DNA of 64,000 nucleotides from an uncultured Methanosarcinales archaeon (lineage in GTDB: Archaea; Nanobdellota; Nanobdellia; Woesearchaeales; GW2011-AR9). Shown piece after piece: positions 36,799 to 61,563 of the stretch (positions are counted from its first letter, which is position 1; every line of letters starts with the position of its first letter). The DNA lies in NCBI GenBank assembly GCA_964632045.1, contig CAZWBB010000004.1:18615-82614 (forward strand), in the 5' to 3' direction. The notes beneath the pieces were generated by a model that did no database searches, was not told the origin of the DNA, and saw only the letters and a list, made by a program, of their open reading frames with translations. The position numbers and the translations under genes were made by a program.

Positions 36799-37839
36799 TT
36801 GGAGGATTTGAAAATGGGAAATAGGAAATTTGGACGCCAAATGTTATTGTATTCTTTGGCAGGAGTGGTGGGGTTGGGCAGTTTGGGCGGCTGCGGTTCA
36901 GTGAAGTTGGAGCAGAGGGGTCAGCTGCTTGTGGAAAAAACAGTTAGACCGTTTGGCACAGACACTGAGAGAGTTACAGGTCGTCTACCCATCACGCCTT
37001 CGTATCGGCCAGGAGTTGATCCAGGGGCTGTCGCAATAAACGTGGCAGAGTTTGAACGCTACTGCCATGAAACATTCAACTTTACCGAGTGGGTTGACCG
37101 GGAGGCTAAGATCAACAGTCCGTCTCCTTCCAGAGAAGTCTGCAGAATTGCCAGGGAGAGGGTTGGTGAAGCCCAGCTGGATTATCTCAAGGCCAAGGAG
37201 TTGCGGGAGCAGTTGCTTGTTCATACGGGAAGGTTGGACCGGATCGTAGACAGGTTGATCGGGGTTCTGGATGAGAGGGACAGTAACCTGACTATCTCAC
37301 CAACAACAACCATCTCACCGACGACGACTGTAAGCCCTGGAACAACTCTGAATGCAACAGTTGAGTCTGGTCTGTCTCAAAGCGCCGCCAAACTTGCAGC
37401 GGCCGGTTCCTGGGTGAGCAGGGAGATAAGCAGCGATTATCTGTCGAGAGAGATTCAGAAAGCTGTATGCAACGGTGAATCTGTGAAAGAGATCAGTTAT
37501 GAGAAGGTGGGAGCACTTACTTTTGCTGACTGCAGAGTTGATCCTTTTGAGAAGACATCTGATGGAATCTATTCGTTGACTGAAAAGGCTAGTTCGTACT
37601 CGGATGCAGGTAAATTGACAAGAGGTACTTTACTGCTGTGCGGTAATGCCGATAAGAGAGCTGCCGACAGATGTTTCTCTAAGACAAATCTTGACCTGTC
37701 CGGTCACAGAGCGGTGTCTGTGCTTAATGCCGTCTATAGGAAACTGGGAGAAGGCAAACTGCAGCAGACACATGCGGACGTTTACTCAAATGGAGAGAAG
37801 CTGGATGAAAGGACGGTTGAGGTGTATTTGGTTAAATAG
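36799..37839 (+). CDS. Lipobox lipoprotein, hypothetical (contains ISPTTTISPTTTVSPGTT Thr/Pro repeats)
   Basis: GGAGG ribosome-binding site; signal plus LGSLGGCGS lipobox. Confidence 0.5.
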   Translation: MEDLKMGNRKFGRQMLLYSLAGVVGLGSLGGCGSVKLEQRGQLLVEKTVRPFGTDTERVTGRLPITPSYRPGVDPGAVAINVAEFERYCHETFNFTEWVDREAKINSPSPSREVCRIARERVGEAQLDYLKAKELREQLLVHTGRLDRIVDRLIGVLDERDSNLTISPTTTISPTTTVSPGTTLNATVESGLSQSAAKLAAAGSWVSREISSDYLSREIQKAVCNGESVKEISYEKVGALTFADCRVDPFEKTSDGIYSLTEKASSYSDAGKLTRGTLLLCGNADKRAADRCFSKTNLDLSGHRAVSVLNAVYRKLGEGKLQQTHADVYSNGEKLDERTVEVYLVK

Positions 37840-37850
37840 GAGGCAAAAAA

Positions 37851-38117
37851 ATGAACAGATACTATAGTCTGATTGTGGGTGCGGCTGCCCTTGCTCTAAG
37901 CGGAGCTTACATGACAGGATGTGATGATGAGCATCCTAAAGAATGCTGCGAACAGATGTCACGGGAATCGCCCTGCAAGAACGATTACCACTGCGGGTAT
38001 GCAGATCAGGAAGATGCTAAACTATGCATCCAGAATTCTTCCGGAAAATACGAATGCTGTAAATGCAAACCGGACATAGATGATGATTATGATCGGGGAT
38101 ACGATGATGACTTCTAG
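37851..38117 (+). CDS. Small Cys-rich lipoprotein (88 aa)
   Basis: LSGAYMTGCDD lipobox-like; 9 Cys. Confidence 0.4.
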   Translation: MNRYYSLIVGAAALALSGAYMTGCDDEHPKECCEQMSRESPCKNDYHCGYADQEDAKLCIQNSSGKYECCKCKPDIDDDYDRGYDDDF

Positions 38118-38307
38118 GAAGCTCACTTGGTTACTTGGACTTTCTGCTCTGGCATATGGAGGTTGCGATCTGACTGGCAGCGATGATGACCTCTACTCGC
38201 AGGATGCTGGAGGTTTCATAGAGATGGATGGTGTCAGCCACAATTCGGGGGACGGGGGAGAGTGGGGCAGGGAGGATCGAGGTTTCCGCTGCTGCGTAGA
38301 CATTTGA
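38080..38307 (+). CDS. Small secreted protein (75 aa) ending in RGFRCCVDI, the same tail as the next gene
   Basis: Signal LLGLSALAYGGCDL; C-terminal ...DRGFRCCVDI. Confidence 0.4.
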   Translation: MMIMIGDTMMTSRKLTWLLGLSALAYGGCDLTGSDDDLYSQDAGGFIEMDGVSHNSGDGGEWGREDRGFRCCVDI

Positions 38308-38321
38308 ACGAGGTAAATAAA

Positions 38322-40400
38322 ATGCTTGAAAAAATATTGAAGATCGGTCTGACCACCGCTGTTTTAGGGATTGGAGCATTAACCTACAGTGCATGCGGCG
38401 TGAATAGTTTTGAAGGAGACGGACAGATAGATATTGGTTATAGTACTATAGATGCTGGTTATGTCCAGGATGTATCAGGCAACGATAACGTTGTTGTATG
38501 CAGTGATAAAGATATGGATGGATTTGCTGATAATGCTGGTTGTGGGACACAAGTTGATTGCAACGACAGAGATGCGGAAATCAATCCAGGTAAAGCAGAG
38601 CTTCCAGACGGAGTTGACAATAATTGTGACGGACAGATCGATGATGATTTTTCCGTACGGTATGATGATTTTGATGATCATCCTGAGAATTTTCAGACCG
38701 GACCTTGTTCTTTTGACCACACTCCAATCACCTATGCTTTCGACAATTTTACCCCGGACATGAATGGTGTAGATGTCCAAGCTTCGTTTTCGAGAGCTTT
38801 TTCCCTATGGGAGAATCAAACCAGCCTGAGGTTCGAAGAGATTGCAAGTGTGGGTGAAGCGGACATTGTGATTCTGTTTGATACGTTTGGGCACACGTGG
38901 AGCGATGGTAACGCTTGTTTTCCTTTTGACGGCCCATATGATGTATTGGCCCATGCCTATCATCCGTGCTATTCTTCCCCCATCACGGAAGGCCATTTTG
39001 ATGACTCTGAAGACTGGACAGATGACATTAGGAATAGTGTATATCAACCGATTGATATGGATACAGTTGCAGCACATGAGATTGGTCACATGTTGGGACT
39101 ACATCATTCAGATGTTGATACGGCATTGATGGCTCCTTTATATGTTGGTTCGCACCGTTATCTTGACCAGGATGACGTAGATGGTATTCAGGCACTGTAT
39201 CCTGGGGACTTGCCCCCTCCATGCAATGATGACGATGGTGATGGCTATGGGAATCCAGGGATCTATTCCTGCCGATTAGGGGAGCAGGATGACTGCGATG
39301 ACTCAAATGTTGCTATTCATCCCAATGCGGATGAACTCTGTGACCTTCTGGACAATGACTGCAATGGATTAGTCGATGAGGATCCAGATAACTGGAGTTC
39401 AGACTGTGGCTCATGTCTTGATACAGATGGAGATGGTTACGGCGAGTTGGGATCAAATTTGTCAAGTTGTCTATATCCAAATCAGGTTGATTGTAACAAC
39501 GATAACGCGGATATGTATCCTGGTGCTCCAGAATTTTGTGACGCAAAAGACAACAACTGCAATGGTGAGATAGATGAAGACCCTGGCTTCTATAATAACT
39601 GTGGAAGTTGCGGTCCTGATGAGCTTGGAATTGGTGATACCTGTGGAGAGTGTGGATCTGTTCAGTGCAGAAACGGAGGTGGAGTAGAATGTAATGATCC
39701 ATGTGAATGTCCCGGTCACCCTGAGATGATCCGGAAAGGAGATTATTGCATCGATAAATGGGAAAATTCTGTGTGGAGCAGTTCTCAGTGTAATGGAAGG
39801 CAGTGGGGATTGGGAAGGGATGATTGGCTAGGGGAATTTCCAGTAAATGTTCACAGCAGGGGATTGGTCCGTGGGGGAAATACGCATTGGCCGAGCTATT
39901 GTTGCATAGATGCAGGTGTGATGCTCTATGCCTGTTCAAAGGCAGGAGTGATCCCAGCTTATCAAGTTACCTGGTTCAGAGCAAGAAAGGCTTGCGAGAA
40001 TTCCGATAAGAGACTCTGTACCAGAGAAGAGTGGGTTGATGGCTGTGATGGTCAGGTTGGAGACGGTGGCTGTGAATATGGTACAAACTCATGCGACAGT
40101 CTCCCAGATGGTGTGTGTAACCTGCAGGATGGGTTAGGTCAGATCGCCCCGACTGGTTCATTTCAAGGTTGCAGAAGTGCAGGGGGTGCCTTTGATATGA
40201 CCGGGAATCTGTCAGAAGTGTTTGAAGACCATTTCATCCAGCATGGTAACAAGTACAGGAATTACTGTACAAGTACTGGGTACGACTGGCCGTTTGACCA
40301 AAACCATATACACGACTGCAGCACAGAGGGTGAAAGCTGTCGCAGTGATGCAGGCATGGTCGAGAATCATCGGGGTTTCAGATGTTGTGTTGATCTTTAG
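38322..40400 (+). CDS. Secreted lipoprotein: MopE-like Cys/Asp repeats, a matrixin (MMP-like, M10) zinc metalloprotease domain and a C-terminal FGE-sulfatase-like domain
   Basis: VAAHEIGHMLGLHHSDVDTALMAPLY has the metzincin HExxHxxGxxH plus the Met-turn ALMxPxY as in MMPs. Several CDDxDxxIxPxAxExCDxxDNDCNGxxDE repeats. C-terminal GAFDMTGNLSEVFED resembles the FGE-sulfatase GNxxEW motif. Ends ...HRGFRCCVDL. Start taken at MLEKIL (38322); the ORF is open from 38262. Confidence 0.7.
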   Translation: MLEKILKIGLTTAVLGIGALTYSACGVNSFEGDGQIDIGYSTIDAGYVQDVSGNDNVVVCSDKDMDGFADNAGCGTQVDCNDRDAEINPGKAELPDGVDNNCDGQIDDDFSVRYDDFDDHPENFQTGPCSFDHTPITYAFDNFTPDMNGVDVQASFSRAFSLWENQTSLRFEEIASVGEADIVILFDTFGHTWSDGNACFPFDGPYDVLAHAYHPCYSSPITEGHFDDSEDWTDDIRNSVYQPIDMDTVAAHEIGHMLGLHHSDVDTALMAPLYVGSHRYLDQDDVDGIQALYPGDLPPPCNDDDGDGYGNPGIYSCRLGEQDDCDDSNVAIHPNADELCDLLDNDCNGLVDEDPDNWSSDCGSCLDTDGDGYGELGSNLSSCLYPNQVDCNNDNADMYPGAPEFCDAKDNNCNGEIDEDPGFYNNCGSCGPDELGIGDTCGECGSVQCRNGGGVECNDPCECPGHPEMIRKGDYCIDKWENSVWSSSQCNGRQWGLGRDDWLGEFPVNVHSRGLVRGGNTHWPSYCCIDAGVMLYACSKAGVIPAYQVTWFRARKACENSDKRLCTREEWVDGCDGQVGDGGCEYGTNSCDSLPDGVCNLQDGLGQIAPTGSFQGCRSAGGAFDMTGNLSEVFEDHFIQHGNKYRNYCTSTGYDWPFDQNHIHDCSTEGESCRSDAGMVENHRGFRCCVDL

Positions 40401-40430
40401 GAATGTTCAATAGATACAAGGGGAAAGCTT

Positions 40431-41894
40431 ATGTCAAAATTGAAAGAAATCATCTATAGTTTTGGAGCAGTAGCTCTCTTGATGGGAGCAACTTCCTGTG
40501 ATGATGGTCAGGAATTGGACAGTTCCCGTGAATTTGAGAAGATTGAGGATGCAGGGGTTGCTTATGACAGTACGGAGCAGGGGGAAGTGCCTAACCTGGA
40601 TATTGGCGATCTCCCCGGCGAGTTAACAGTCTGCTGGAGGGATGAAGATGGAGATGATTATCCAGCTAAAGGAAAACAGATAAGGACAAGGTATGAATGT
40701 CCTGAAGGAACAGCTGAAGCGGAGTGCACGGATCATCCCAGCTGCTTCGACTGTGATGATAGTGATGAGCGCATAAATCCCGGGGCGCAAGAGATATGTA
40801 ACGGGATCGATGATGATTGTGATGGTGTGATTGATGGTAATCTGACCAGGCAATGCCACTCAATCTGTGGAGAGGGACTTGAGTATTGCATCGATGGAGA
40901 TTATCAGGACTGCGATGCTCGTGTTCCTAGTGATGAGGTATGCGACGGTATTGACAATGATTGTGATGGTGAAACCGATGAAGGACTATTTGAGTTGTTC
41001 TTTCGGGATCATGATCAGGATGGCTATGGGAATCCGAATGATACGATAGAAGCATGCCAGTGTCCTGACGGGTATACACAAGACAATACAGATTGCGATG
41101 ATGATAATCCTTTTGCCCATGAGTATATCACATGTATCCATGATGAGAACCGCTGTGGATCTTTCCAGCTCTGCATAGATCCTTGCCCACCCCCTCCCGA
41201 AGAAATCTGCGATGGGATAGATAATGATTGCAATGGTTTGATTGATGAGATTGAATGCTGTGAGGAAGGTGATGTGAGAGATGTGGTTGAATGTCCACCT
41301 TCACCTCAAAGTTTTGTATTTGTAATTGATAATTCGGGAAGTATGCGTGAGAGGAGTGATCCTAATTATGTGCGGTATGCTGGTTTGAGGGGGTTTGTCG
41401 AACTTATGGATGATGAGGATGAGGCAGCAATAATTGCTTTTACTAATAACATGCAGGTCTATTGTGGTAACTTCTCTTCTGATCGTGACGCTCTGATGGA
41501 TTGCATCACCCAGGCAAGACAGTTTAGTCTGGGTGGAAGTACGGACATTGATCCGCCAATGTATCAAGCAATTGATATTGTGTCAGGAAGAAATAACCGC
41601 AAAATAATCATACTTCTTACTGATGGTGTTGACGCTAATGGTGATTATGACGCTGATAATATTCGCATCACTGCAGAAAATAGGAGAGCAACAATATACG
41701 CTTTGGGTTTTGGAGAGGCTGATGAGGAAGCACTAAGGCAGACTATTACTGCCGATGGAAGTTATTCTTTGATTAATAATGCTGAGGAAATTCCTGGCTT
41801 GTATGAACAAATCTTTCAGCATAGTAATTATGAGTCGTGGAGAGAGTGTGATAGAAATGGTATGTGGATAGAAAGACAGGGGGAGTGTGAATAA
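40431..41894 (+). CDS. Lipoprotein with MopE-like Cys/Asp repeats and a C-terminal von Willebrand factor A (vWA) domain
   Basis: Lipobox LLMGATSCDD. Repeats CDDSDERINPGAQEICNGIDDDCDGVID. vWA MIDAS motif FVFVIDNSGSM...ILLTDG. C-terminal SWRECDRNGMWIERQGEC. Confidence 0.7.
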   Translation: MSKLKEIIYSFGAVALLMGATSCDDGQELDSSREFEKIEDAGVAYDSTEQGEVPNLDIGDLPGELTVCWRDEDGDDYPAKGKQIRTRYECPEGTAEAECTDHPSCFDCDDSDERINPGAQEICNGIDDDCDGVIDGNLTRQCHSICGEGLEYCIDGDYQDCDARVPSDEVCDGIDNDCDGETDEGLFELFFRDHDQDGYGNPNDTIEACQCPDGYTQDNTDCDDDNPFAHEYITCIHDENRCGSFQLCIDPCPPPPEEICDGIDNDCNGLIDEIECCEEGDVRDVVECPPSPQSFVFVIDNSGSMRERSDPNYVRYAGLRGFVELMDDEDEAAIIAFTNNMQVYCGNFSSDRDALMDCITQARQFSLGGSTDIDPPMYQAIDIVSGRNNRKIIILLTDGVDANGDYDADNIRITAENRRATIYALGFGEADEEALRQTITADGSYSLINNAEEIPGLYEQIFQHSNYESWRECDRNGMWIERQGECE

Positions 41895-43726
41895 TGATTA
41901 AAAATATCATATATTCAGTGGTTGGATTAACTCTCTTATCTGGATGCGGTGATATGAGCCGTCCAATGGACCATTCAATTGATGAACCAGAAGTGAAGAA
42001 TGATACTGAAAAGGACGATGTAAATTCCAACGTAGACTACTATTTTAATGGTGACTTGGTTGATAGGATTGCTGGTGACAAAAATCAGCTGAATCCGTAT
42101 GACTTCAGAAACGAGAATGGAAATGCACCTACTTTTCCTGATTACAACAATGGTTGGAAAGAGCGGGTAATTGCATGTTTCCTGGATGCTGATGGAGATG
42201 GTTATGGAATAAAAGAGATCCAGATAAGAGATGTTGAATGCCCTCCTGGCTATGCTGGATTCAACGGTCTGTTTGATTGCGATGATGACAATGAACTTAT
42301 CTATCCTGATGCCCAAGAGTTGTGTGATTATTGGGATAATGATTGTGATGGTCTTATTGATGAGGATTGTCTATGCAGGATGGAAGAGGGAAAATTATGC
42401 GGCAGCAGTGATGTTGGAGAATGCCGCTATGGAATACAGGTATGTGATTTATATGGAGACTGGGGAGAGTGCGATTGCAATGTCGAGCCGGCAGAGGAAG
42501 TATGCGATGGATTGGACAATGATTGCGACGGCAGGGTGGATGAAGGTGTACAGGCAACGTACTATGAGGATGAGGATGGAGACAGTTTTGGTAATGCGCA
42601 AGTGGAAGTCAATCACTGCTTTCTACCGGAAGGTTACGTCGAAAATATGCTGGATTGCGATGATGGCAATGCAGATATCTACCCTGACGCTCCGGAGTTG
42701 TGCGACTACTGGGACAACGACTGTGATGGTGAGACGGATGAAGATTGCGTCTGTATCAAAGGAGAGACACAACAGTGCGGTAGGATTGACATCGGGGAAT
42801 GTGAATACGGCACTCAAACATGTGACATTAATGGGGGCTGGGGTGAGTGTATAGGCAGGATCGTCCCCAGATCAGATTTCTGTGACGGGCTGGACAATGA
42901 TTGTGATGGGGAGACTGATGAAAGATATAATGCAGGAGAAGTCTGTTACACAGGAAGGGGGGAATGCAGAAGAGAAGGGATCTTTCATTGCACAGAAAAC
43001 ACGATAGACACTATTTGTGATGCCATCGCCGGTGAACCAGGAGAAGAATTTTGTGGAGATGATCTTGATAATGACTGTGACGGAAGAACTGATGAAGATT
43101 GCTGTCGGCAGGGAATGATCAGAGATGTTGTTAGGTGCCCTTATTTTCCACATAGTTTCTCTTTTGTAATCGACAACTCCGGGAGTATGTTAAGTAATGA
43201 TCCAACTAATATCAGATATCGTGGTTCGCACGACTTTGTGAATTCGATGCGCAATACAGACGAAGCAAGCGTCATGGTTTTCGCAAGAAGACATGAGGTT
43301 GTATGTGGTTTCACTTCTGACAAAGAAGATCTTAGAGATTGCTTTATTGAAGCAGAGAACTATGATGTTGACAGTGGTGCAACTAATATTGGTCCTGCTT
43401 TATCAGATGCGATAGATGACATCTCTTTGAGAATTGCAAGAAAAGTGATCATCCTCCTAACAGATGGAGATAGTGATTATAATGAGAACTCGATGAGGAT
43501 AAGGGCTGAGCAGAATGGGATTAGCGTTTACACTCTTGGGCTGGGTGCCGCGGACGAACAGAGTCTCATGGCAACAGCAACACCGGATGGTGGATACTTT
43601 GGCATCGATGAAGTAGAAGAGATTCCTGCTCTTTACAACCGGATCTTCCGGGAAAGAAGGAACCAGTCGTGGGAATCATGCAACGAGCGCGGGATGTGGG
43701 TAGAAAGGAGGGGAAATTGTCGATGA
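41894..43726 (+). CDS. Lipoprotein with MopE-like repeats and a vWA domain (paralog)
   Basis: Lipobox LLSGCGD; six or more DNDCDG repeats; FSFVIDNSGSM...ILLTDGDSD; C-terminal SWESCNERGMWVERRGNC. Confidence 0.7.
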   Translation: MIKNIIYSVVGLTLLSGCGDMSRPMDHSIDEPEVKNDTEKDDVNSNVDYYFNGDLVDRIAGDKNQLNPYDFRNENGNAPTFPDYNNGWKERVIACFLDADGDGYGIKEIQIRDVECPPGYAGFNGLFDCDDDNELIYPDAQELCDYWDNDCDGLIDEDCLCRMEEGKLCGSSDVGECRYGIQVCDLYGDWGECDCNVEPAEEVCDGLDNDCDGRVDEGVQATYYEDEDGDSFGNAQVEVNHCFLPEGYVENMLDCDDGNADIYPDAPELCDYWDNDCDGETDEDCVCIKGETQQCGRIDIGECEYGTQTCDINGGWGECIGRIVPRSDFCDGLDNDCDGETDERYNAGEVCYTGRGECRREGIFHCTENTIDTICDAIAGEPGEEFCGDDLDNDCDGRTDEDCCRQGMIRDVVRCPYFPHSFSFVIDNSGSMLSNDPTNIRYRGSHDFVNSMRNTDEASVMVFARRHEVVCGFTSDKEDLRDCFIEAENYDVDSGATNIGPALSDAIDDISLRIARKVIILLTDGDSDYNENSMRIRAEQNGISVYTLGLGAADEQSLMATATPDGGYFGIDEVEEIPALYNRIFRERRNQSWESCNERGMWVERRGNCR

Positions 43727-45789
43727 TGATGAAAGAAGGGATTGGAATGATCCTGTATGGGGTTGCAGGACTGGCTGCCCTGGTTGGTTGCGAAAGCGAA
43801 GCTCCTCGTTATGGGGTGGTGGCAGATGCAGGAGCGGATGCAGAATTTACTGAAGTAAATGATGCAGGTATGGATAAAAGGATGGATATTAGCACAGATA
43901 CAAGAATTGGTACTGCAGGAAATGCAGAACATGATTTTGATATTGGTGCTAGAAACGTGCTTGCCTGTTTCAAAGACTGGGATGGAGATGGTTTCCCAGT
44001 CAAGGAAGATCAAGTCTGGGATGAGATCTGTCCGGAAGGATACATTCAATATGATCGAAGGGCCTTTGATTGTGATGATGAAGATGCTCATAGACATCCT
44101 GGGGTTGTGGAGTTATGTGATGGGGTAGATAGTAATTGTGATGGGGCTGTGGATGAGGGCTGTTATTGTATAACAGGAGAATCCCAAGTGTGTGGAAGTA
44201 CTGATGTCGGACAGTGTACCTACGGCTCTCAAACATGCGATGTATATGGACGATGGAGTGAATGTGAAGGCAATGTTGAACCTTCTGAAGAGGTGTGTGA
44301 TATTCGCGATAATGACTGCGATGGTGGGATAGATGAAGGTACAAAAATAGTGGCCTGCAGGGACAGAGATCACGACGGCTTCGGAGACCGTTTTGAATTT
44401 ATCGAAACTTGTGAGCATTTGATAGGAACTCCTCCTTTAGGCGGTTATGTGGTTGACTGCACCGATTGTAATGATCATGAGAGTGACATAAATCCAGAAG
44501 CGGTAGAACTTTGTGATCTTCGCGACAACAATTGCGATGGTGAAGTAAATGGAGGCTTCCCTGACTGGGGGCAACCATGTGCTGTGGGGGTGGGAGGATG
44601 TCAAAGGGAGGGAGTAAATAATTGTAGTGAGGACGGGCTGGAGGTGATTTGTAGTGCTGTTGAAGGACAGCCAAGTGAAGAAATATGTGATGGGATAGAT
44701 AACGATTGCGATGGTATCTTGGACAATAATGAGATAGAATACGTGCAGCTAACTGAACATTGTCCCCCTGATTTGGTGGAGGACAAAAGGCCGTTGTTTT
44801 CCCCGGATGGTTCAACAATCGCTTTCTTAAGGTACGCTGAGAGAAGATATGAAGGGGTGTTTGTAATAGATATTGATGGAGAGAATGAGAGGAAACTATT
44901 TGATGGTTTTGGCAGATATGTCTGGCATCAAGACGGAAGTAAATTATACTTTGCATCTGAATCAGATAACACAGTCAGCTCTATCGATACAGATGGAAAT
45001 AATAGAAGAGAGCTACTGCAGCTTAATACTAATGTGAAAGCAATCTTTCACAACAACGGAGATCTGTTAGTAGCGTATCAGCAAGACCAAAATTTTCAAA
45101 TACGTTCAATTAACTCTGGGATGGATATCTTTAGTGAATTACTTCCGCAGGTGAATGAGATATACATATCTCCTGATGGATCAAAATGTGTTTTTCATAT
45201 CTATGCGGGATTCTGTCCAGAAGCAGACTGTTATCGTTATCACCTCTGGAATCGACATACGGATGAGTTCCGGCAAATGACGGATAATCTACCCTATTTA
45301 CTCGCAACAAAAGATTTTTGGTTTCCTGATAATATCAGGTTTGCTTTCACAAAGTCGGTAGACCAAGATGATCCCGGATTTGTACCAGGTCAACCTGATC
45401 TTATTCCTCAAGTGATAGACACCAACACTGGGATTATTCAGGATTTGATTGTTAGGAATTGTATTGGTGAAAGAGGAGAGGAAAAACCTTGTGGTGGTGC
45501 ATTACTTGGTATCTCTGGTGATGGCCAGAAAGTTTTTCTTAATGGATTTGTAGGGGGGGCATTTCTAAGAGAGGGGATTCTAGGGGGGGCATTTAATCTC
45601 TACTTCCCTGAAGTTGATCAAGGGATGATCTCAGATCTGGCATTCCTCTGGAATCCAATTGACTTTTCACCGGATAGCAGGTCATTGGTAAGTTCAAATA
45701 ATCCTTTCCATCATTGTTATGGACTGTTCAAACTCACGCTTCCATACAATCCAGAGATTGATTATGAACCATATTGGTTGAGTTTATGA
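43723..45789 (+). CDS. Lipoprotein with MopE-like repeats and a C-terminal TolB/PD40-like beta-propeller
   Basis: Lipobox LVGCESE; repeats CDGVDSNCDGAVDEG and similar. SPDGSTIAFLRYAE...IDIDGENERKLFDG...WHQDGSKLYF resemble PD40 repeats. Start overlaps the upstream stop codon (ATGATGATGA). Confidence 0.6.
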   Translation: MMMKEGIGMILYGVAGLAALVGCESEAPRYGVVADAGADAEFTEVNDAGMDKRMDISTDTRIGTAGNAEHDFDIGARNVLACFKDWDGDGFPVKEDQVWDEICPEGYIQYDRRAFDCDDEDAHRHPGVVELCDGVDSNCDGAVDEGCYCITGESQVCGSTDVGQCTYGSQTCDVYGRWSECEGNVEPSEEVCDIRDNDCDGGIDEGTKIVACRDRDHDGFGDRFEFIETCEHLIGTPPLGGYVVDCTDCNDHESDINPEAVELCDLRDNNCDGEVNGGFPDWGQPCAVGVGGCQREGVNNCSEDGLEVICSAVEGQPSEEICDGIDNDCDGILDNNEIEYVQLTEHCPPDLVEDKRPLFSPDGSTIAFLRYAERRYEGVFVIDIDGENERKLFDGFGRYVWHQDGSKLYFASESDNTVSSIDTDGNNRRELLQLNTNVKAIFHNNGDLLVAYQQDQNFQIRSINSGMDIFSELLPQVNEIYISPDGSKCVFHIYAGFCPEADCYRYHLWNRHTDEFRQMTDNLPYLLATKDFWFPDNIRFAFTKSVDQDDPGFVPGQPDLIPQVIDTNTGIIQDLIVRNCIGERGEEKPCGGALLGISGDGQKVFLNGFVGGAFLREGILGGAFNLYFPEVDQGMISDLAFLWNPIDFSPDSRSLVSSNNPFHHCYGLFKLTLPYNPEIDYEPYWLSL

Positions 45790-45836
45790 AAATGAAAAAA
45801 TGTGTGATTTGAGGATCATACTATTGGAGGAATAAA

Positions 45837-48806
45837 ATGTTAGGAAAAAAAATTGAATGTATATTGAGGAAGCATCCAGCGATAGGATTGATGATAGGGG
45901 TGGCAGGTTTAGCTTATGGTTGTGATGACGTCCCAGATAATCATGCAGATAACGACTATACAACGCATACTTCTACTGGAAGTGACGATCCTTCTGGGAA
46001 TCAACCACAGTCACATGATTCTGGGAATAATGGTCCTGCTGTTGATGCTGGTAATCCTCAACTAGAAGATCCAGCTTCAAACAATGCAGATTGTTCAATA
46101 CGATACTTCTTAGATAATGATAGAGATGGCGCAACACCAAACAAAGCAACCTGGATTTGTACAGAAGAAGATGGCTATGCAGCATCCTTTGCACCTTATA
46201 GCGTCGAGTTTGACTGTGATGATAATAATGAGAACATAAATCCAAATGCGGATGAACTATGTGATGGGTTGGACAATAATTGTGACTTGCAGGTGGATGA
46301 AGAGTGTGATTGTAGTGACGGAGAGACAAAACGATGTGGCAGTAGTGAAGAAGGAGAATGTTCATACGGTATACAGACCTGCAACATCAACGGCGCATGG
46401 GCTGTATGTGTCGGAAATGTTGAACCCGTGGATGAGATCTGTGATGATCTGGACAATAATTGTGATGGGACGACCGATGAAGGGATCACTCGGGATTGTT
46501 CCAACAATTGTGGAGCTGGCCTGGAGGAATGTATCGCAGGGATATGGCGAAATTGTGATGCTCCACAGGTAGAGATGGAACGGTGCGACGGGGAGGACAA
46601 TGATTGTGACAGTGTTGTTGACAACGACTGCATCAACACTTTTGAAAGTGTCTATAGTCTCAATACAGTTGATGAAGCGATGGCTGTGCAGCAAACAGTT
46701 GATGGAGGGTACATCTTTGTTGGTTACACAGGATTCAATGAGCAGTATGATGCTTTTCTCATTAAGACTGATGCCTTCGGGAATGAAGAATGGTCAAACG
46801 TGTACGGTGGACAAGGTGATGAACAGGCTTTCTCAGTTCAACAGTCGGCAGATGGCGGGTATGTTTTTGTGGGGTGGACAGAATCTTATGGGAACGGCGG
46901 CAAAGATGTCTATCTTGTGAAAGTAGATGGAGTTGGTGACGAAATACTTGAAGAGACTTTTGGTGGGGTTGAGGATGAGGTCGGTTTCTCACTGAATGTG
47001 AACCAAGACGGCAGTCTGGTAATGACCGGAAGAGCAAACTCTGAGGAGGGGGCTGGCCAAGATGTATTCCTTCTTAAGACAGATGAACTGGGAAGTGAAG
47101 ATTGGTTCAGGACTTATGGTGGGATGGGAGATGAAAAAGGGCTTTCAGTAATCGAAGATTCCAACCAAGATTTTGTTGTTGCTGGCGTCAGACATTCCTT
47201 TGGCGGAAGCGGACTTGACATTCTGCTCTTGAAAGCAGACAGGCAAGGAAATCTTGAGTGGTCACGTACTTATGGAGAAGGAGGTGATGAGACTGCATTT
47301 GAGATTAAGGAAGCCGTTGACAGGAGTCTGATAGCTGTAGGAAAGACAAATTCTGAGGGGGCTGGTCTGGATGATATCTGCCTGCTCAAGACATCAGGAG
47401 ATGGAAGGGAGATCTGGAAGAGAACGTATGGTGGAGCGTTCAATGAAGAAGGACAGTCAGTTCAGTTGACCACAGATGATAATCTTGTGATAGTTGGAAG
47501 CGAGCAGTCAGAAGAAGGCGGGGATACTGATCTCTATCTGGTCAAAGTTGATCTGGATGGACGTGAGTTGTGGTCAAAGAATTATGGAGGGATGGATAAT
47601 GAGAGAGGATACTTTATACAGGAGACAGTAGATGGTGGTTTTGTTGCTGCGGGACATATCGAATCTAGAAGAGACCGATCCAAGTCTGTCTACATGATCC
47701 GTACTAATGAGGCTGGAGACGTACAACGACATAAAGCGTATGGTACTTCTTCAGATGAAGTTGGACTGGAGGTCATAATCGATGGTGAAGATAGTGTTGT
47801 AGTGGGTTGGACAGAGGCAGCTGCGAATATGGCCAAACAGGCTGTAGTTATGAAGTATGACTCTGAGGGAAATCAGCTTTGGCAAAGCTTGATGGGTGAA
47901 GAGCTGGATGAAGTTGGTCAAACAATTGTAAAAGGCTCTGACGGTAATTATGTAATAGCTGGAAGTGTTGGTAATGATGAACCCCATAGCAAAGATATCT
48001 ATTTGTCAGGATTAGATGTTAACGGTAACCCTGTCTGGAGTAATTCATTTGGAGGGCCCAGGACAGATGTTGCATCGCAGATAAAGAGCCTACCAGATGA
48101 GGGATACCTTCTCGTAGGATCATCAGATTCTCAGGGAGAAGAGGATATGGATGTCTATTTAGCTAAAGTTGACATGATGGGAATTCCTATCTGGCAGATG
48201 CACTATGGAGGGGCAGGTAATCAAGTGGGGATGGCAGTTGAAGTGCAGGACGACGGGTTTGTGATAGCAGGCTATCGGGAATCTTTTGGCAACGGTGGAA
48301 ATGATATCTATGTGTTGAAGACTGACACTCAGGGCAGTCTCAGATGGTCGCAACCGTTTGGCGGAGATAAGGACGATATTGCCTATGCGATCAGAGCGGA
48401 GGGCGGGGGATATGTCATAGCCGGTAGCACAGAATCAGAAGGTGCTGGTGGGAAAGACGCTTTCCTGCTGAGGATAGATGATCAAGGTTTTCAAGAGTGG
48501 TTTAGGTCATATGGAGGGGTGGATGATGAGGTTGCCTATTCCATCTTACCAGGGAATCGAGAATCACTTTACCTGGTCGGTTCTACCTCTTCTTTCGGAG
48601 CTGGTGGAAAAGATGTTTATCTGGTAAAAGCTGATGGAGACGGTAGGCAGCAGTTCTTCAGGGCTTTTGGAGGTCATGACGATGATGAAGGTCGCTCAAT
48701 AGTTGCTTCTGGGGATGAATTCATCATCTCTGGTTGGACAGATTCCTTCGGAGCAGGAGGGAAGAATATCTACATCATACGGACGGATGAGGATGGTAAT
48801 CTATGA
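45837..48806 (+). CDS. Large lipoprotein (989 aa): N-terminal MopE-like repeats followed by about 13 tandem beta-propeller-type (SBBP-like) repeats of about 50 aa
   Basis: Lipobox LAYGCDD. Recurrent YGGxGDExGxSVxxTxDGGYVxxGxTxSxGxGGxDxYLxKxDxxGxxxW units. Confidence 0.6.
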   Translation: MLGKKIECILRKHPAIGLMIGVAGLAYGCDDVPDNHADNDYTTHTSTGSDDPSGNQPQSHDSGNNGPAVDAGNPQLEDPASNNADCSIRYFLDNDRDGATPNKATWICTEEDGYAASFAPYSVEFDCDDNNENINPNADELCDGLDNNCDLQVDEECDCSDGETKRCGSSEEGECSYGIQTCNINGAWAVCVGNVEPVDEICDDLDNNCDGTTDEGITRDCSNNCGAGLEECIAGIWRNCDAPQVEMERCDGEDNDCDSVVDNDCINTFESVYSLNTVDEAMAVQQTVDGGYIFVGYTGFNEQYDAFLIKTDAFGNEEWSNVYGGQGDEQAFSVQQSADGGYVFVGWTESYGNGGKDVYLVKVDGVGDEILEETFGGVEDEVGFSLNVNQDGSLVMTGRANSEEGAGQDVFLLKTDELGSEDWFRTYGGMGDEKGLSVIEDSNQDFVVAGVRHSFGGSGLDILLLKADRQGNLEWSRTYGEGGDETAFEIKEAVDRSLIAVGKTNSEGAGLDDICLLKTSGDGREIWKRTYGGAFNEEGQSVQLTTDDNLVIVGSEQSEEGGDTDLYLVKVDLDGRELWSKNYGGMDNERGYFIQETVDGGFVAAGHIESRRDRSKSVYMIRTNEAGDVQRHKAYGTSSDEVGLEVIIDGEDSVVVGWTEAAANMAKQAVVMKYDSEGNQLWQSLMGEELDEVGQTIVKGSDGNYVIAGSVGNDEPHSKDIYLSGLDVNGNPVWSNSFGGPRTDVASQIKSLPDEGYLLVGSSDSQGEEDMDVYLAKVDMMGIPIWQMHYGGAGNQVGMAVEVQDDGFVIAGYRESFGNGGNDIYVLKTDTQGSLRWSQPFGGDKDDIAYAIRAEGGGYVIAGSTESEGAGGKDAFLLRIDDQGFQEWFRSYGGVDDEVAYSILPGNRESLYLVGSTSSFGAGGKDVYLVKADGDGRQQFFRAFGGHDDDEGRSIVASGDEFIISGWTDSFGAGGKNIYIIRTDEDGNL

Positions 48807-48840
48807 GACCAATTGAGCATCAGATAGGGGAGGTATAAAA

Positions 48841-50142
48841 TTGCACACACACAAAATTTGGAAAATCATTCGAGATAGAAGTTTTGGGATTGGAATCAGT
48901 GCTCTGGTTTTGGCGGCTTCAGCAGGTTGCGATGACAGTCAGAATAACGCTGGCATACCAATAGATGACGAATATGTTGATGTGGTTATACCAGCAAGTG
49001 ATTCTGGTGTGGAGGATACAGGTATGCCTGATTGTGAAAGCAAATACTTCCGCGATTTTGATGGTGATCGCTTCGGAGATTACAGTGCTGCATTTGTATG
49101 CGAGCTGGTTCAGGGTTACGTTGGAAATAACCTTGATTGCAATGATTCCCATGGGGGCATTAATCCAGGTGCCCAAGAAGTTTGCGACGGGATAGACAAT
49201 AATTGTGACGGAGATATTGATGAAGGTTTTCCGAAGATGGATTTTTACTTAGACAGAGATAGAGATACTTATGGAGACGATTCCTCAGTAACGATTGGAT
49301 GCGATCCTCCCAATGATTTCTACGTTCTTCTTGGAGGAGATTGCAACGATACAAATCCAAATATCAATCCGATGGCCCCGGATATCAAATGCAGCGGCGT
49401 AGATGAGAACTGTGATGGGATCTTAGATAATAACAGGATCATGCGACATAAAAGAGAGTGTCAAGGTGGAGATGCTTACTGGAGGGATAATTGTGGCGAC
49501 CTAGGTGACCTTGCGGAAAGATGTGCTGAAAACCAAGTTTGCGAGGATGGGGAATGCAAGTGCATTCCAGATTGTACAAACAGGGAATGCGGTTCGGATG
49601 GTTGCGAGGGAAGTTGCGGTATCTGTCAGGGAGAAAACTCAGAATGTATCTCCGGAGATTGTGTTTGCGAGACTACATGTGGTAGAGACCAATGTGGACC
49701 AGATGGTTGTGGTGGAACATGCGGGGAATGCTCTCCCAGGAACCAATGCGTCGAAAGATATCGTGGAGGGTTGATGATGGTCTGTGAGTGCGAACCAGAT
49801 TGTGGTAGTCTTTGTTGTTGGGAAGATGGACTTGAATGTCTGCATGTGGAGATGTATGGGAGAGATATCTGCATCCCACCTGGAAGTGATGTATGCAGAT
49901 CCAGGGATGGACGGACTTACGGTTTCTGCCGACCAGGGTTGGTGTGTGGTGAAGGTTGGGAGTGTCAGATGGGTCCAGTAGATGTACAATGCTGCCCTCC
50001 TAATAGGGCGCACTACCAGAGGGTCAGGATAGGACGGGCAGCAGCACCCTCCAGGTTGTGCTGTGATGCATGTTATGATAGTTTTGATAATAATCAGGAG
50101 GCGAACGCGCACTGCACCACTCCGGTTGATCAGAGCAGGTGA
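48841..50142 (+). CDS. Lipoprotein with MopE-like repeats and C-terminal Cys-rich CGxDGCGGxCGxC repeats (TTG start with a GGGGAGGT ribosome-binding site)
   Basis: Lipobox LAASAGCDD. CGSDGCEGSCGIC, CGPDGCGGTCGEC. 433 aa. Confidence 0.55.
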   Translation: MHTHKIWKIIRDRSFGIGISALVLAASAGCDDSQNNAGIPIDDEYVDVVIPASDSGVEDTGMPDCESKYFRDFDGDRFGDYSAAFVCELVQGYVGNNLDCNDSHGGINPGAQEVCDGIDNNCDGDIDEGFPKMDFYLDRDRDTYGDDSSVTIGCDPPNDFYVLLGGDCNDTNPNINPMAPDIKCSGVDENCDGILDNNRIMRHKRECQGGDAYWRDNCGDLGDLAERCAENQVCEDGECKCIPDCTNRECGSDGCEGSCGICQGENSECISGDCVCETTCGRDQCGPDGCGGTCGECSPRNQCVERYRGGLMMVCECEPDCGSLCCWEDGLECLHVEMYGRDICIPPGSDVCRSRDGRTYGFCRPGLVCGEGWECQMGPVDVQCCPPNRAHYQRVRIGRAAAPSRLCCDACYDSFDNNQEANAHCTTPVDQSR

Positions 50143-52046
50143 ATGGATTGTTGGGTGCCAAAATGGTAATTGTAAAGTATATCTCAAATGCAGAGAATTT
50201 TGTGAAAGGATATGTTGGTAATCCATTATCCACAGCAATAATAGCTGCTGCCATTGCAGTTGGCTCATTACTTACCCCTGGTTGTACCGATGAGGATCCT
50301 GCGGATGATCTAGTTCATGAGGAATGCTTTGAAAACTTGGAGGTACGTAGAGGTTGTGATGAAGACGAGGAATGTGGATCTAGGAAACATTGTTCCAGAA
50401 GCAGGTGTTATTACAACCGCTGTGAAGATCGTGAAGGATATTATAAAGTAGAGGACAGATGTTGTACAGATGGTACTGAGGGGAGTATTGTCTGTATTGA
50501 GAACTCACATCCAATTCATTCTCCTTATCCCTTGGATCTCAGTTGGAACAAAGACAAGGGTCTTGCCTGCTTAGATAAGAAGATCAAAATTTATTATTAC
50601 GATATTGAGAATGTTGATTTGCAGCCGATTGTCCCCATGTCAGGCATCTGTCCAGTAAGTATCATTGAAAGAGAAAGTATAGCTTGGGCTCTGGACTTCC
50701 GGGAGAATTCTCTGGTCACTATGGAGAATTATGAAGTAGTGGATTCTGTTCCTCTTCCTGGAGAAAGTCCGTTGAACCTCGCTTTTGCTCCTGCGGATAC
50801 ATTTTGGTATCTTGATGGCGATATCGGATTAAGCAGAATTGACATGGCCGGCAAGGTGATCGATTCTGTCCGTACACCTGACTTAGAGATGAAAGGGATG
50901 GCTACTGAAAGAGCATATCTTTGGTTCGTGGGAACTCATGATGGATTGTCATCGAGAATTCTCAAGACAAGCCACTCTGGAAACATACTTAACGAGTTCA
51001 ATTCTCCTGCAGATTCTCCGGTAGGGATAGCGGTCGCTGATTCTTCCGTATGGGTACTGGATGAGAGTCTACGGGTGGTCATCCAAATGACAGAACTTGT
51101 CTCTCAGCAAGCAATTGAGTGTTATCTTGATTCTGATGGGGACGGTTTCGGCCATGAGCGGACTATAGTTTCACCTATGAAAGGAAGATGTCCAGAAGGT
51201 TATGTGAAAAATCCGTTCGACTGTGATGATACAAATGCAAGAGTGCATCCTGGAATGAATGAAGTATGCAATGGAATTGATGATGATTGTAATGATGGTG
51301 TTGATGAAAATCTTGAGATGAATTGTATGTATGTATGTCCGGAAATTGGTCTGGAGATCCATGGGAAAGTATTCTGTCGTAATGGAGAATGGACAGAATG
51401 TAGCGCGAATACACAATGTTGTGAGTATGGTGATATCATGGACCGCGTTTATTGTGATGATAATTTGTCATTGCTGTTTGTAATAGACAATTCTGGCAGT
51501 ATGACTGGTAGTGATGGTAATGACCATAGTGGAATGCGCTATAATGGGCTGAATGAACTTGTTGATGAGATGGAACATGGAGACGAAGCGTCTATCATCC
51601 CTTTTGGAGATCGGTCTGAGGTGTCATGCGAGTTTACTTCAAACCCAGGTAGCCTAGATGATTGTGTTTCCCGGGCAAGGGCGGCTTCTGTGGGAGGTGG
51701 AACTAATATCAGGGGGGCATTGCAACGAGCCATGTCTCATATTAATAGTGCTAGTTACAGAAAAATAATTGTGCTTCTTACTGATGGGGAGGACAGTTAT
51801 GATGCTGATTCATTTAGACAAGAGGCAGAAAGAGCAGATATCACCTTATATGCCATGGGATTTGGAAGTGCAGATGAAGATGTATTGCGGGCGACGGTAA
51901 CTGAAGATGGAGATTATTTCAAGATAGATAATGCCCAGCAGATCCCTTCAGGGTACAAGACCATCTTACATAGCAACAAGATCAAGTCCTGGAAAGAATG
52001 TGATGATCGAGGTAACTGGCAACAAAGATATGGTGTGTGTGATTAA
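50139..52046 (+). CDS. Lipoprotein with a Cys-rich N-terminal region, a beta-propeller-like middle, one MopE-like repeat and a C-terminal vWA domain (third vWA paralog)
   Basis: Lipobox LLTPGCTDE. CDDTNARVHPGMNEVCNGIDDDCNDGVDE. LLFVIDNSGSM...VLLTDGEDS. C-terminal SWKECDDRGNWQQRYGVCD. Start ambiguous (GTG at 50139 or ATG at 50163). Confidence 0.65.
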   Translation: MNGLLGAKMVIVKYISNAENFVKGYVGNPLSTAIIAAAIAVGSLLTPGCTDEDPADDLVHEECFENLEVRRGCDEDEECGSRKHCSRSRCYYNRCEDREGYYKVEDRCCTDGTEGSIVCIENSHPIHSPYPLDLSWNKDKGLACLDKKIKIYYYDIENVDLQPIVPMSGICPVSIIERESIAWALDFRENSLVTMENYEVVDSVPLPGESPLNLAFAPADTFWYLDGDIGLSRIDMAGKVIDSVRTPDLEMKGMATERAYLWFVGTHDGLSSRILKTSHSGNILNEFNSPADSPVGIAVADSSVWVLDESLRVVIQMTELVSQQAIECYLDSDGDGFGHERTIVSPMKGRCPEGYVKNPFDCDDTNARVHPGMNEVCNGIDDDCNDGVDENLEMNCMYVCPEIGLEIHGKVFCRNGEWTECSANTQCCEYGDIMDRVYCDDNLSLLFVIDNSGSMTGSDGNDHSGMRYNGLNELVDEMEHGDEASIIPFGDRSEVSCEFTSNPGSLDDCVSRARAASVGGGTNIRGALQRAMSHINSASYRKIIVLLTDGEDSYDADSFRQEAERADITLYAMGFGSADEDVLRATVTEDGDYFKIDNAQQIPSGYKTILHSNKIKSWKECDDRGNWQQRYGVCD

Positions 52047-52100
52047 TTACCCAAAAAACAACTGGAAGACGCTCAGGATTTACTTTATGTAAAAAAACCA

Positions 52101-53225: not shown

Positions 53226-53269
53226 CAATACTGTAAATGAACGGATAATATGGTAGATGAAAGGATAAA

Positions 53270-61479: not shown

Positions 61480-61563
61480 TTTTATAAACCAAAACCACAA
61501 GTAATATAAACATTGAGAAAATCCTCTTCTAAAATAATAGTAATAAAAACTGAGGTGTTAAAC

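Follow-up and report, generated by a model that had tools for sequence, protein, structure and literature searches.

A row of lipobox-type proteins with a common MopE-type stalk and varied extracellular domains in a Woesearchaeota genome

Introduction

What does an archaeon do with a row of surface-type proteins in which one kind of Cys- and Asp-rich repeat is joined to a matrixin protease, to von Willebrand factor A (vWA) domains or to beta-propellers? The question is raised by contig CAZWBB010000004.1 of GenBank assembly GCA_964632045.1, of which a stretch of 64,000 nucleotides (contig positions 18,615–82,614) was analysed. This whole stretch is referred to as the window hereafter, and all coordinates are those of the window. 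Ten consecutive open reading frames (ORFs) of the + strand, named g1, s1, s2 and g2–g8, lie at 36799–52046, two of which (s1 and s2) are small. A preliminary description of the locus had spoken of ten consecutive genes, and this count is correct only when the two small ORFs are included. As judged from sequence, g2–g8 are paralogs of one old family, which share the stalk but have exchanged their heads. From the domain content, we regard the locus as a lipid-anchored surface toolkit for contact and cleavage, that is, for binding and proteolysis, and we put the probability of this reading a little above even.

Every module of the family belongs to a known one: matrixin, vWA with the metal ion-dependent adhesion site (MIDAS), PF11617 repeats, PD40/SBBP propellers and the FGE fold. 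For the stalk-and-head lipoprotein family of Woesearchaeota, its tandem expansion, and the fusion of a matrix metalloproteinase (MMP) domain with MopE repeats, no description was found in the literature searched. Partner recognition, attachment and exploitation in DPANN archaea are largely unknown, and few lineages are in culture. The cluster supplies concrete, testable candidates, including a collagenase-type protease predicted to be tethered to the surface and three MIDAS adhesion domains, all on a common stalk.

A common stalk in seven proteins

A repeat finder detected 20 copies of a 49-nucleotide unit at 38598–51309, which are 60–80% identical in nucleotides and encode E-x-C-D-G-x-D-N-D-C-D-G-x-x-D-E. 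Three copies each are found in g2, g3 and g6, five in g4, four in g5, one copy and one half-repeat in g7, and one copy in g8; outside these seven genes, no ORF of the 64-kb window contains the peptide core. Seven proteins with multiple motifs had been proposed: the seven carriers are right, but the plural does not fit g8 with its single copy or g7 with its one and a half. All seven match Pfam PF11617 (Cu-binding_MopE) above the gathering score (41.6–107.5 bits against 27). They are also strongly acidic, with D+E accounting for 17.5–23.6% and K+R for 4.8–8.5% of the residues, and their Cys content is 2.3–10.9%. Two overlapping groups are related over longer distances: g3, g4 and g8 are 36–40% identical across stalk, vWA domain and tail, and g4, g5 and g6 are 35–39% identical across the N-terminal 280–340 residues. 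This degree of divergence, among the paralogs as well as among the repeats at the DNA level, indicates that the expansion is old. The cluster and its flanks consist of the following features.

35524–36567, − strand: tandem Lrp/AsnC-type regulator, divergent from the cluster and its candidate regulator (Pfam: two HTH_AsnC domains and a ligand-binding domain)
36814–37839, + strand: g1, lipobox-type protein (…LGSLGG-C) without MopE repeat and with no recognisable domain in profile searches
37851–38117, + strand: s1, Cys-rich lipobox-type protein of 88 residues (…YMTG-CDD), an ORF also predicted in the JGI and ENA assemblies
38104–38307, + strand: s2, lipobox-type mini-protein of about 67 residues (…LAYGG-C), the C-terminus of which, RGFRCCVDI, resembles the end of g2; possible gene remnant
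38322–40400, + strand: g2, signal/lipobox, one MopE repeat, matrixin catalytic domain, two MopE repeats, Cys-rich linker and FGE-sulfatase-fold domain (Pfam; homologous protein clusters P0002 and P0005)
40431–41894, + strand: g3, lipobox, acidic linker, three MopE-type repeats, vWA with intact MIDAS and Cys-clasped C-terminal hairpin (Pfam, AlphaFold2, Foldseek)
41894–43726, + strand: g4, lipobox (LLSG-C), five MopE-type repeats, vWA and C-terminal hairpin (Pfam, repeat search)
43723–45789, + strand: g5, lipobox (ALVG-C), four MopE-type repeats and PD40 beta-propeller (Pfam, repeat search)
45837–48806, + strand: g6, lipobox-type signal, three MopE-type repeats and a long SBBP-repeat beta-propeller region (Pfam, NCBIfam NF047494)
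48841–50142, + strand: g7, lipobox-type signal, one full and one partial MopE repeat, and a Cys-rich C-terminal region (10.9% Cys)
50139–52046, + strand: g8, lipobox-type signal, Cys-rich module, a region of about 290 residues without family match, one MopE repeat, vWA and C-terminal hairpin
52146–53225, + strand: g9, membrane-anchor or late signal segment, without MopE repeat or known domain; start at 52101, 52146 or 52179
53270–54337, + strand: g10, signal peptide without Cys (…SPLQA|ED), without known domain; the row ends here, the next gene being convergent (− strand)

The arrangement of stalk and head can be seen in the g3 model, which was obtained with AlphaFold2 (AF2) from a 24-sequence family alignment and has a mean predicted local distance difference test (pLDDT) value of 80.8. 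Residues 1–60, consisting of the signal and an acidic linker (24–60), are disordered in this model. They are followed by a stalk of small beta-hairpin modules at residues 61–230 (pLDDT about 90) and by the vWA domain at residues 280–487 (pLDDT > 90).

The family name of the repeats invites the view that the cluster serves metal handling, with the repeats binding copper or another metal for scavenging or buffering at the surface. Such a role would agree with the PF11617 matches in all seven proteins and with their very high Cys and Asp contents. However, a sequence search of the g4 repeat region against the PDB gave nothing at E ≤ 1, not even MopE, and the name 'copper-binding' cannot count as evidence that copper is bound; the earlier label 'putative metal-binding, MopE-like' amounts to a Pfam family name. 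The copper ligands of MopE are two histidines and a kynurenine, not a Cys/Asp motif, which also counts against metal handling. Furthermore, none of the heads is a module of metal transport or redox chemistry: they comprise a protease, adhesion domains and propellers. The cluster also contains no metal transporter. We consider this role very unlikely. A likeness to the TSP3 repeats of thrombospondin, which had also been suggested, was not borne out: there is no TSP_3 profile among the Pfam matches of all ten proteins at E ≤ 0.01.

The matrixin and FGE-type domains of g2

The Peptidase_M10 profile (PF00413; MEROPS M10A) matched g2 at 4.8e-41 (140.7 bits; cut-off 24) over positions 3–158 of 159. 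Comparison with the catalytic domain of human MMP-1 gave an E value of 3e-30, and that with bacterial karilysin 2e-25. The zinc site HEIGHMLGLHH (HExxHxxGxxH) and the Met-turn ALMAPLY align with HELGHSLGLSH and ALMYPSY of MMP-1. In addition, the H, D, H and H of FGHTWSDG...LAHA...EGHFD align with those of GDHRD...LAHA...DAHFD in MMP-1, and we take these four residues to be structural zinc ligands, as in MMP structures. By these alignments, g2 has a complete matrixin catalytic domain and is a predicted zinc endopeptidase, in agreement with the preliminary description, whose quoted strings HEIGHMLGLHHS and ALMAPLY, as well as DNSGSM for the vWA domains, are all present. A Cys located 11 residues ahead of the domain (GPCSFDH) is also found in P0002 and not in P0005.

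The C-terminal part of g2 matched FGE-sulfatase (PF03781) at 3.8e-8, with 33.7–37.1 bits against a gathering score of 23.3. The domain had been described as FGE-sulfatase-like, and the score supports this; the match covers only positions 91–253 of the 255-position profile. Similarity to SUMF2 was weak (E 0.009), restricted to query residues 86–179, and ends before the C-terminal region expected to contain the catalytic Cys pair. We therefore treat the domain as a fold assignment and not as an enzyme; possibly it is a binding module.

Among the matches listed from species-representative genomes, the closest relatives of the g2 matrixin domain belong to Bacteroidota and Chloroflexota. They are 45–49% identical and carry different tails, including a type IX secretion system (T9SS) tail and TSP3-like acidic repeats. 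No archaea were among these matches, but neither were the window's own genome and GCA_053533955.1, so that the archaeal absence is not evidence. The proposed likeness to eukaryotic extracellular-matrix proteins thus holds for the domain vocabulary, but the closest relatives of the matrixin among the matches listed are bacterial. Sporadic archaeal matrixins, including those of the DPANN group Pacearchaeota, have been inferred to be acquired by transfer (PMC12587646). The joint occurrence of MMP domain and MopE repeats was found in three protein clusters only (P0001, P0002 and P0005) among the best matches listed.

The vWA and propeller heads

Three paralogous vWA domains had been predicted, and these were clearly recognised in g3, g4 and g8: PF00092 matched at 1e-12 to 2e-16 (48–61 bits against 23.8), and VWA_2 (PF13519) scored 48–62 bits against 27. 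The MIDAS motif D-x-S-x-S...T...D is intact, its residues D33, S35, S37, T103 and D130 being invariant in the three paralogs and 12 family members. In all three proteins the domain is closed by a Cys-clasped C-terminal hairpin (S-W-x-E-C...W...G-x-C), which is conserved and family-specific. A Foldseek search with the modelled g3 domain gave a probability of 1.0 for ITIH1, CMG2, TEM8, vWF A3 and BatB, and integrin I domains were also near. Judging from this model, the nearest solved folds are extracellular ligand-binding vWA domains.

The propellers had likewise been anticipated, and with them all domains assigned in the preliminary description were confirmed. The PD40 repeats of g5 scored above the gathering threshold (29.8–36 bits against 20.9). 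The repeats of g6 matched the SBBP-repeat lipoprotein model NCBIfam NF047494 in three stretches at 1.1e-24; since the score of 87 bits lies below the 400-bit equivalog cut-off, this match indicates the repeat type of g6 only.

These heads allow another interpretation, in which the proteins are structural parts of the cell's own envelope, such as spacers, S-layer anchors and an envelope maturation protease, and are not outward binding tools. PD40 propellers are known in the envelope protein TolB, to which a weak match (2.8e-7) was found here, and vWA proteins of the BatA/BatB type are envelope-associated, with weak profile matches and the fold match to BatB in the present case. Membrane-anchored, abundant Cys/Asp-rich and probably Ca-binding modules would also suit such a role. 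On the other hand, all matches to the TolB and Bat models are far below the family cut-offs. A housekeeping role also predicts conserved orthologs and synteny; instead, heads have been swapped and copies have diverged, and a related genome lacks the cluster around its homolog. An envelope role thus appears unlikely.

Relatives in other genomes

A word-index search with the vWA domain of g4 alone returned nothing at E ≤ 1e-5 and missed even the paralogs, and it was replaced by an exhaustive search of 1.84 billion representatives with a profile of the vWA domain and its tail. This search gave 47 matches below 1e-30. Among the top 149 representatives, 24 carry both MopE cores and vWA, mostly in a visibly similar layout of lipobox, stalk and vWA. 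Two of these 24 are named 'VWA domain-containing protein [Candidatus Woesearchaeota archaeon]', and it is merely as such that the family is labelled in the databases for other Woesearchaeota. One representative (P0275) consists of MopE, vWA, MopE and a region that by eye resembles SBBP-type repeats, all in a single chain. In a metagenome scan, the sole true family locus among the matches listed was L076, a contig of 29% GC with two tandem MopE lipobox genes; [VL]IDNSGSM, a generic pattern, dominated the rest.

The closest homolog of g2 is P0002, which is 63% identical over the MMP domain, stalk and linker and carries a PD40 propeller where g2 has the FGE-like domain. Its gene in GCA_053533955.1 adjoins genes for proteasome alpha, RNase P Rpp14 and OB-fold SSB-type proteins, an archaeal neighbourhood, and is surrounded by a tandem Lrp/AsnC regulator followed by five consecutive lipobox ORFs. 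The theme thus recurs across genomes, but the exact gene set does not.

Export signals

All ten proteins encoded from g1 to g8 have a charged N-terminus, a hydrophobic stretch and then [G/A/S]-Cys at about residues 18–30 from the likely start. The canonical lipobox used for comparison is the bacterial consensus, with [L/V/I] at position −3 and [A/S/T/V/I] at −2. Leu at −3 is found only in g1, g4 and g5; of these, g4 (LSG-C) and g5 (LVG-C) also agree at −2, and g1 (LGG-C) has Gly there. The earlier claim of lipobox signals thus stands for the Cys after the hydrophobic segment in 10 of 10 proteins, but for the canonical −3 residue in 3 of 10 only, and the signals should be called lipobox-like rather than textbook lipoboxes. 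A similarly relaxed lipobox is seen in MopE family members of other genomes. Lipoboxes also occur in three further ORFs of the window (57619, 60703 and 61513), which points to a feature of the genome as a whole rather than one peculiar to the locus. Lipobox proteins have been predicted to be prevalent in DPANN archaea, where the archaeal lipidation enzyme family AliA has been reported (PMC12462473). Of the two genes following g8, g9 encodes a membrane-anchor-like segment behind a long N-terminus, and g10 a signal peptide without Cys.

A separate observation concerns the n-region of the signal peptide. The N-terminus of g2 (38322) begins with 'MLEKILKK', of the conserved type M-[L/I/F]-E-x-[I/L/V]-[I/L/V/K]-[K/R/S/Q]. 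This n-region was found in 12 of the 24 MopE-vWA representatives and in none of the 125 other vWA matches, and in a set of 120 MopE proteins of other taxa only the self match appeared. It was seen in P0254, P0258, P0261, P0281–P0283, P0294, P0298, P0308, P0347 and P0385, together with L076 (about 4850) and L005 (9339). It may be a lineage- or family-specific signal for export or sorting.

Host genome and age of the cluster

The RtcB protein of the window (10764–12227) is 70–80% identical to its best matches, and the named ones (70–76%) are all from Candidatus Woesearchaeota or Nanoarchaeota. The preliminary description had supposed a probably archaeal genome; RtcB and the neighbours of the g2 homolog confirm this, and by these gene comparisons the host is an uncultured archaeon of the DPANN group, Woesearchaeota. 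The window belongs to an NCBI contig of 85.8 kb, and its sequence recurs in three metagenome assemblies.

A recent bacterial-derived insertion had been named as one of the findings that would refute the earlier interpretation. The locus would in that case be an island transferred from Myxococcota or a similar source and having no adapted role. The top MopE matches by bit score are indeed Myxococcota proteins, the nearest matrixin relatives among the matches listed are bacterial, and transfer has been inferred for archaeal MMPs (PMC12587646). However, the Myxococcota matches cover 13–22% of the query, namely the repeats alone, and the named relatives with the same architecture are from other Woesearchaeota and not from Myxococcota. 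The GC content of the locus (0.42–0.47) falls within that of the rest of the window (0.37–0.48). Pooled synonymous codon usage of the locus and of the remaining window is correlated at r = 0.98, and the single genes (0.84–0.92) equal or exceed the housekeeping genes. Tetranucleotide correlations of the locus are slightly lower (0.82–0.88); they are equalled by positions 1–4000 and are consistent with the skewed amino-acid content. Native codon usage and the old divergence of the paralogs (35–40% identity, repeats 60–80% in DNA) exclude a recent insertion, and the island explanation is largely refuted, with hardly any probability left to it. An ancient bacterial acquisition of single modules is likely. 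The locus would then exemplify an archaeon in which bacterial-type extracellular modules (matrixin and MopE repeats) were gained long ago and afterwards duplicated and domain-shuffled.

As a separate observation, a true compositional outlier does exist nearby: the queuosine-salvage gene (Q_salvage; 34524–35480, − strand), located just upstream of the regulator, has a GC content of 0.311 and a GC content at third codon positions of 0.227, as compared with about 0.43 and 0.41 elsewhere.

Extent of the gene row

GGAGG-like motifs precede the likely start codons of the row. Two starts are possible for g1 (36799 or 36814; end 37839) and for s2 (38080 or 38104; end 38307; about 67–75 residues). Independent gene callers also predicted both s1 and s2, in assemblies of the same population from JGI and ENA. 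Between g1 and g8, neighbouring genes either overlap or lie at most 47 nucleotides apart. The + strand row is extended by g9, which lies about 100 nucleotides behind g8 (55–133 depending on the g9 start), and by g10 after a further 44 nucleotides. An operon-like row of 12 co-directional genes thus spans 36814–54337, with all gaps below about 135 nucleotides. It is bounded on the 5′ side by the divergent tandem Lrp/AsnC regulator and on the 3′ side by the convergent − strand gene after g10. By these boundaries and the short gaps to g9 and g10, 36814–54337 is the natural unit. A scan for sigma-70 promoters and terminators gave nothing above the shuffled expectation, the sigma-70 model not being applicable to archaea. 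Scans of the 64-kb window for Rfam families and tRNAs gave no matches.

Three observations concern single members of the row. In g8, residues of about 50–340 (50139–51200) comprise a Cys-rich stretch with a weak EB-module match (E 0.01) and then about 250 residues without family match, the periodic hydrophobic pattern of which looks propeller-like. The end of s2 (...EDRGFRCCVDI; 38104–38307) is nearly identical to that of the FGE-like domain of g2 (...HRGFRCCVDL; 40370–40400). We rejected a recent copy of the 3′ end of g2 as the origin of s2, because at the DNA level the two are similar only over about the last 30 nucleotides and the remainder aligns poorly; at most, s2 may be an old remnant, perhaps of a deleted family member. 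For g1, a single-sequence AF2 model was uninformative (pLDDT 37.5).

The regulator is one of three paralogs in the window. These proteins of about 350 residues, each with two HTH_AsnC domains and an AsnC ligand-binding domain, are encoded at 19075–20154, 26955–28010 and 35524–36567 (all − strand), are 35–43% identical, and each lie divergently ahead of a series of + strand genes for secreted or unknown proteins. In another Woesearchaeota-type genome (L005, 7850–8911, − strand), a regulator of the same type (36% identity) is located ahead of the lipobox run around the MMP homolog. The recurrence suggests a layout in which a regulator is combined with a cassette of surface proteins.

Proposed function

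Under the contact-and-cleavage reading, the lipobox proteins from g1 to g8 would be exported by the Sec pathway, lipidated at the Cys and displayed on the cell surface. Each of g2–g8 would then follow one plan: a lipid-anchored Cys, a disordered acidic linker, a rigid MopE-type stalk and an exchangeable head. The heads comprise the matrixin with an FGE/C-type-lectin-fold domain (g2), the vWA domains (g3, g4 and g8), a PD40 propeller (g5), an SBBP propeller (g6) and a Cys-rich module (g7). The acidic stalks, probably stabilised by Ca2+ and disulfides, would hold the heads off the membrane; ligands would be bound by the vWA heads, in a metal-dependent manner, and by the propeller heads; and local cleavage of a proteinaceous target would fall to the matrixin. 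The toolkit would most likely act on the surface of a host or partner cell or on some other surface made of protein, and duplication and head swapping would diversify the binding specificity. Woesearchaeota are genome-reduced and presumed to be partner-dependent. In DPANN archaea of oxygen-deficient zones, secreted peptidases have been considered as possible means of parasitism (PMC10936187). Both considerations favour the contact-and-cleavage toolkit.

Several results weigh against this reading. One is that 7 of the 10 lipoboxes deviate at −3 (M, Y, Y, A, A, S or T), and lipidation is a prediction. Another is that the MMP gene is the only one common to the window and the P0002 locus within ±10 kb, in the one related genome inspected. 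Moreover, profile searches assigned no domain to g1, s1, s2, g9, g10, the C-terminus of g7 or about 290 residues of g8. The cysteine-switch motif PRCGxPD of the pro-domain is absent from the g2 sequence, so that latency may be controlled otherwise or the enzyme may not be regulated at all; this switch is typical of animal MMPs and is not required for the matrixin family. The last point is that disulfide formation is uncertain in an organism of probably anoxic waters; an anoxic marine water column is our guess for the habitat of the samples, which are labelled SCRA20-1, SUTE22-1 and JGI 3300009374, and literature searches with the sample and assembly accessions gave no match.

The same parts could instead serve foraging. 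In this case, sinking particles would be the anchorage of the cell, be they proteinaceous or derived from animals (collagen-like matrices, for example), and the matrixin would free peptides for a genome-reduced archaeon that depends on amino acids. The solved folds nearest to the vWA domain include collagen binders (vWF A3, integrin I and CMG2/TEM8), and the g2 matrixin domain is as similar to the catalytic domains of vertebrate collagenases as to karilysin. In marine metagenomes, the abundance of microbial MMPs is tied to that of chitinases and animal-derived substrates have been proposed, but collagen cleavage has been shown for no microbial MMP (PMC12587646). Amino-acid salvage is described for DPANN archaea of oxygen-deficient zones (PMC10936187); however, Pfam searches found no peptide or oligopeptide transporter in or beside the cluster. 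A lipid anchor fits contact-dependent action equally well, and foraging overlaps with the contact-and-cleavage reading, from which it differs only in the target. We regard it as the main alternative, though a rather improbable one. If the proteins are ordinary foraging enzymes, the present result is a useful annotation and no more.

A defence function was also considered and rejected, as the PADLOC models gave no match.

The contact-and-cleavage reading can be extended, speculatively, to a lineage-specific 'stalk-and-head' system of Woesearchaeota, in which cassettes under tandem Lrp/AsnC regulators encode proteins with a family-specific MLEKI[LV]KK signal, a relaxed lipobox, a MopE stalk stiffened by Ca and disulfides, and exchangeable heads. 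Through the swapping of heads and the expansion of paralogs, it would be determined which host cell or surface the episymbiont recognises, attaches to and opens by proteolysis. This extension is doubtful as a whole, and we propose it tentatively; if true, the system would be a prokaryotic functional analogue of the integrin/MMP contact apparatus.

Other observations in the window

A second paralog family, of about 750–790 residues, is encoded on the + strand at 22184–24442, 24429–26789 and 55273–57612 and, weakly, at 17426–19072. Its members have neither a Pfam match nor a signal peptide, are 44–47% identical over about 370 N-terminal residues, and include one copy directly behind the convergent neighbour of the cluster. 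The lipobox protein at 61513–63630 (+ strand), which has a LamG/pentaxin-type domain, contains a Cys-rich module that is 30% identical to g7 over about 200 residues, so that Cys-rich modules appear to have been shuffled beyond the MopE cluster as well. The ORF of 1958 residues at 100–5976 (+ strand) has a calcineurin-like phosphoesterase segment as its only Pfam match and a strong positive GC skew, as have other large + strand genes. Three secreted proteins at 28137–29150, 31202–32266 and 32316–33497 (+ strand) have signal peptides without Cys and are 26–30% identical in their C-terminal region; one of them carries a LysM domain. Such a domain is unusual among archaea and hints that peptidoglycan of bacteria is bound.

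Comparison with known systems

In their repeats, g2–g8 resemble the MopE-related ('putative metal-binding motif-containing', PF11617) surface proteins of Myxococcota and other bacteria, in which a tandem 30-residue repeat, C-D-D-x-D-x-x-I-x-P-G-x-x-E-x-C-D-G-x-D-N-D-C-D-G-x-x-D-E, is fused to varied extracellular domains. The present proteins are, however, archaeal, have 1–5 repeats rather than dozens, carry a lipobox-type anchor in place of MYXO-CTERM or T9SS tails, and form a tandem paralog cluster with a C-terminal vWA-hairpin module of their own. With the prokaryotic matrixins, such as karilysin of Tannerella forsythia and the MMPs of Methanosarcinaceae and Pacearchaeota, g2 shares an MMP catalytic domain with both zinc sites and the Met-turn and without a vertebrate-type cysteine-switch pro-domain; it differs from them in being a lipobox protein whose MMP domain has MopE repeats on both sides and an FGE-fold domain further towards the C-terminus.

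The heads of g3, g4 and g8 have the fold and the complete DxSxS...T...D site of extracellular MIDAS vWA domains (integrin I, vWF A3, CMG2/TEM8, ITIH1 and CLCA1, as well as BatA/BatB). Sequence identity to these is only 14–22%, and here a Cys-rich stalk lies ahead of the domain and a Cys-clasped hairpin behind it; in contrast to BatA/BatB, there are no Bat-type operon partners, the model scores being far below the cut-offs. The signals are comparable to those of the lipobox proteins processed by AliA/AliB in Haloferax volcanii in having a hydrophobic segment, a small residue and an invariant Cys, but L/V/I is found at −3 in only 3 of 10 proteins here. Finally, the SBBP lipoproteins of the Leptospira LipL53 family are like g6 in joining SBBP beta-propeller repeats to a lipobox-type signal; g6 is distinguished from them by its added MopE stalk and many more repeats, and with 87 bits against a cut-off of 400 it is not an ortholog.

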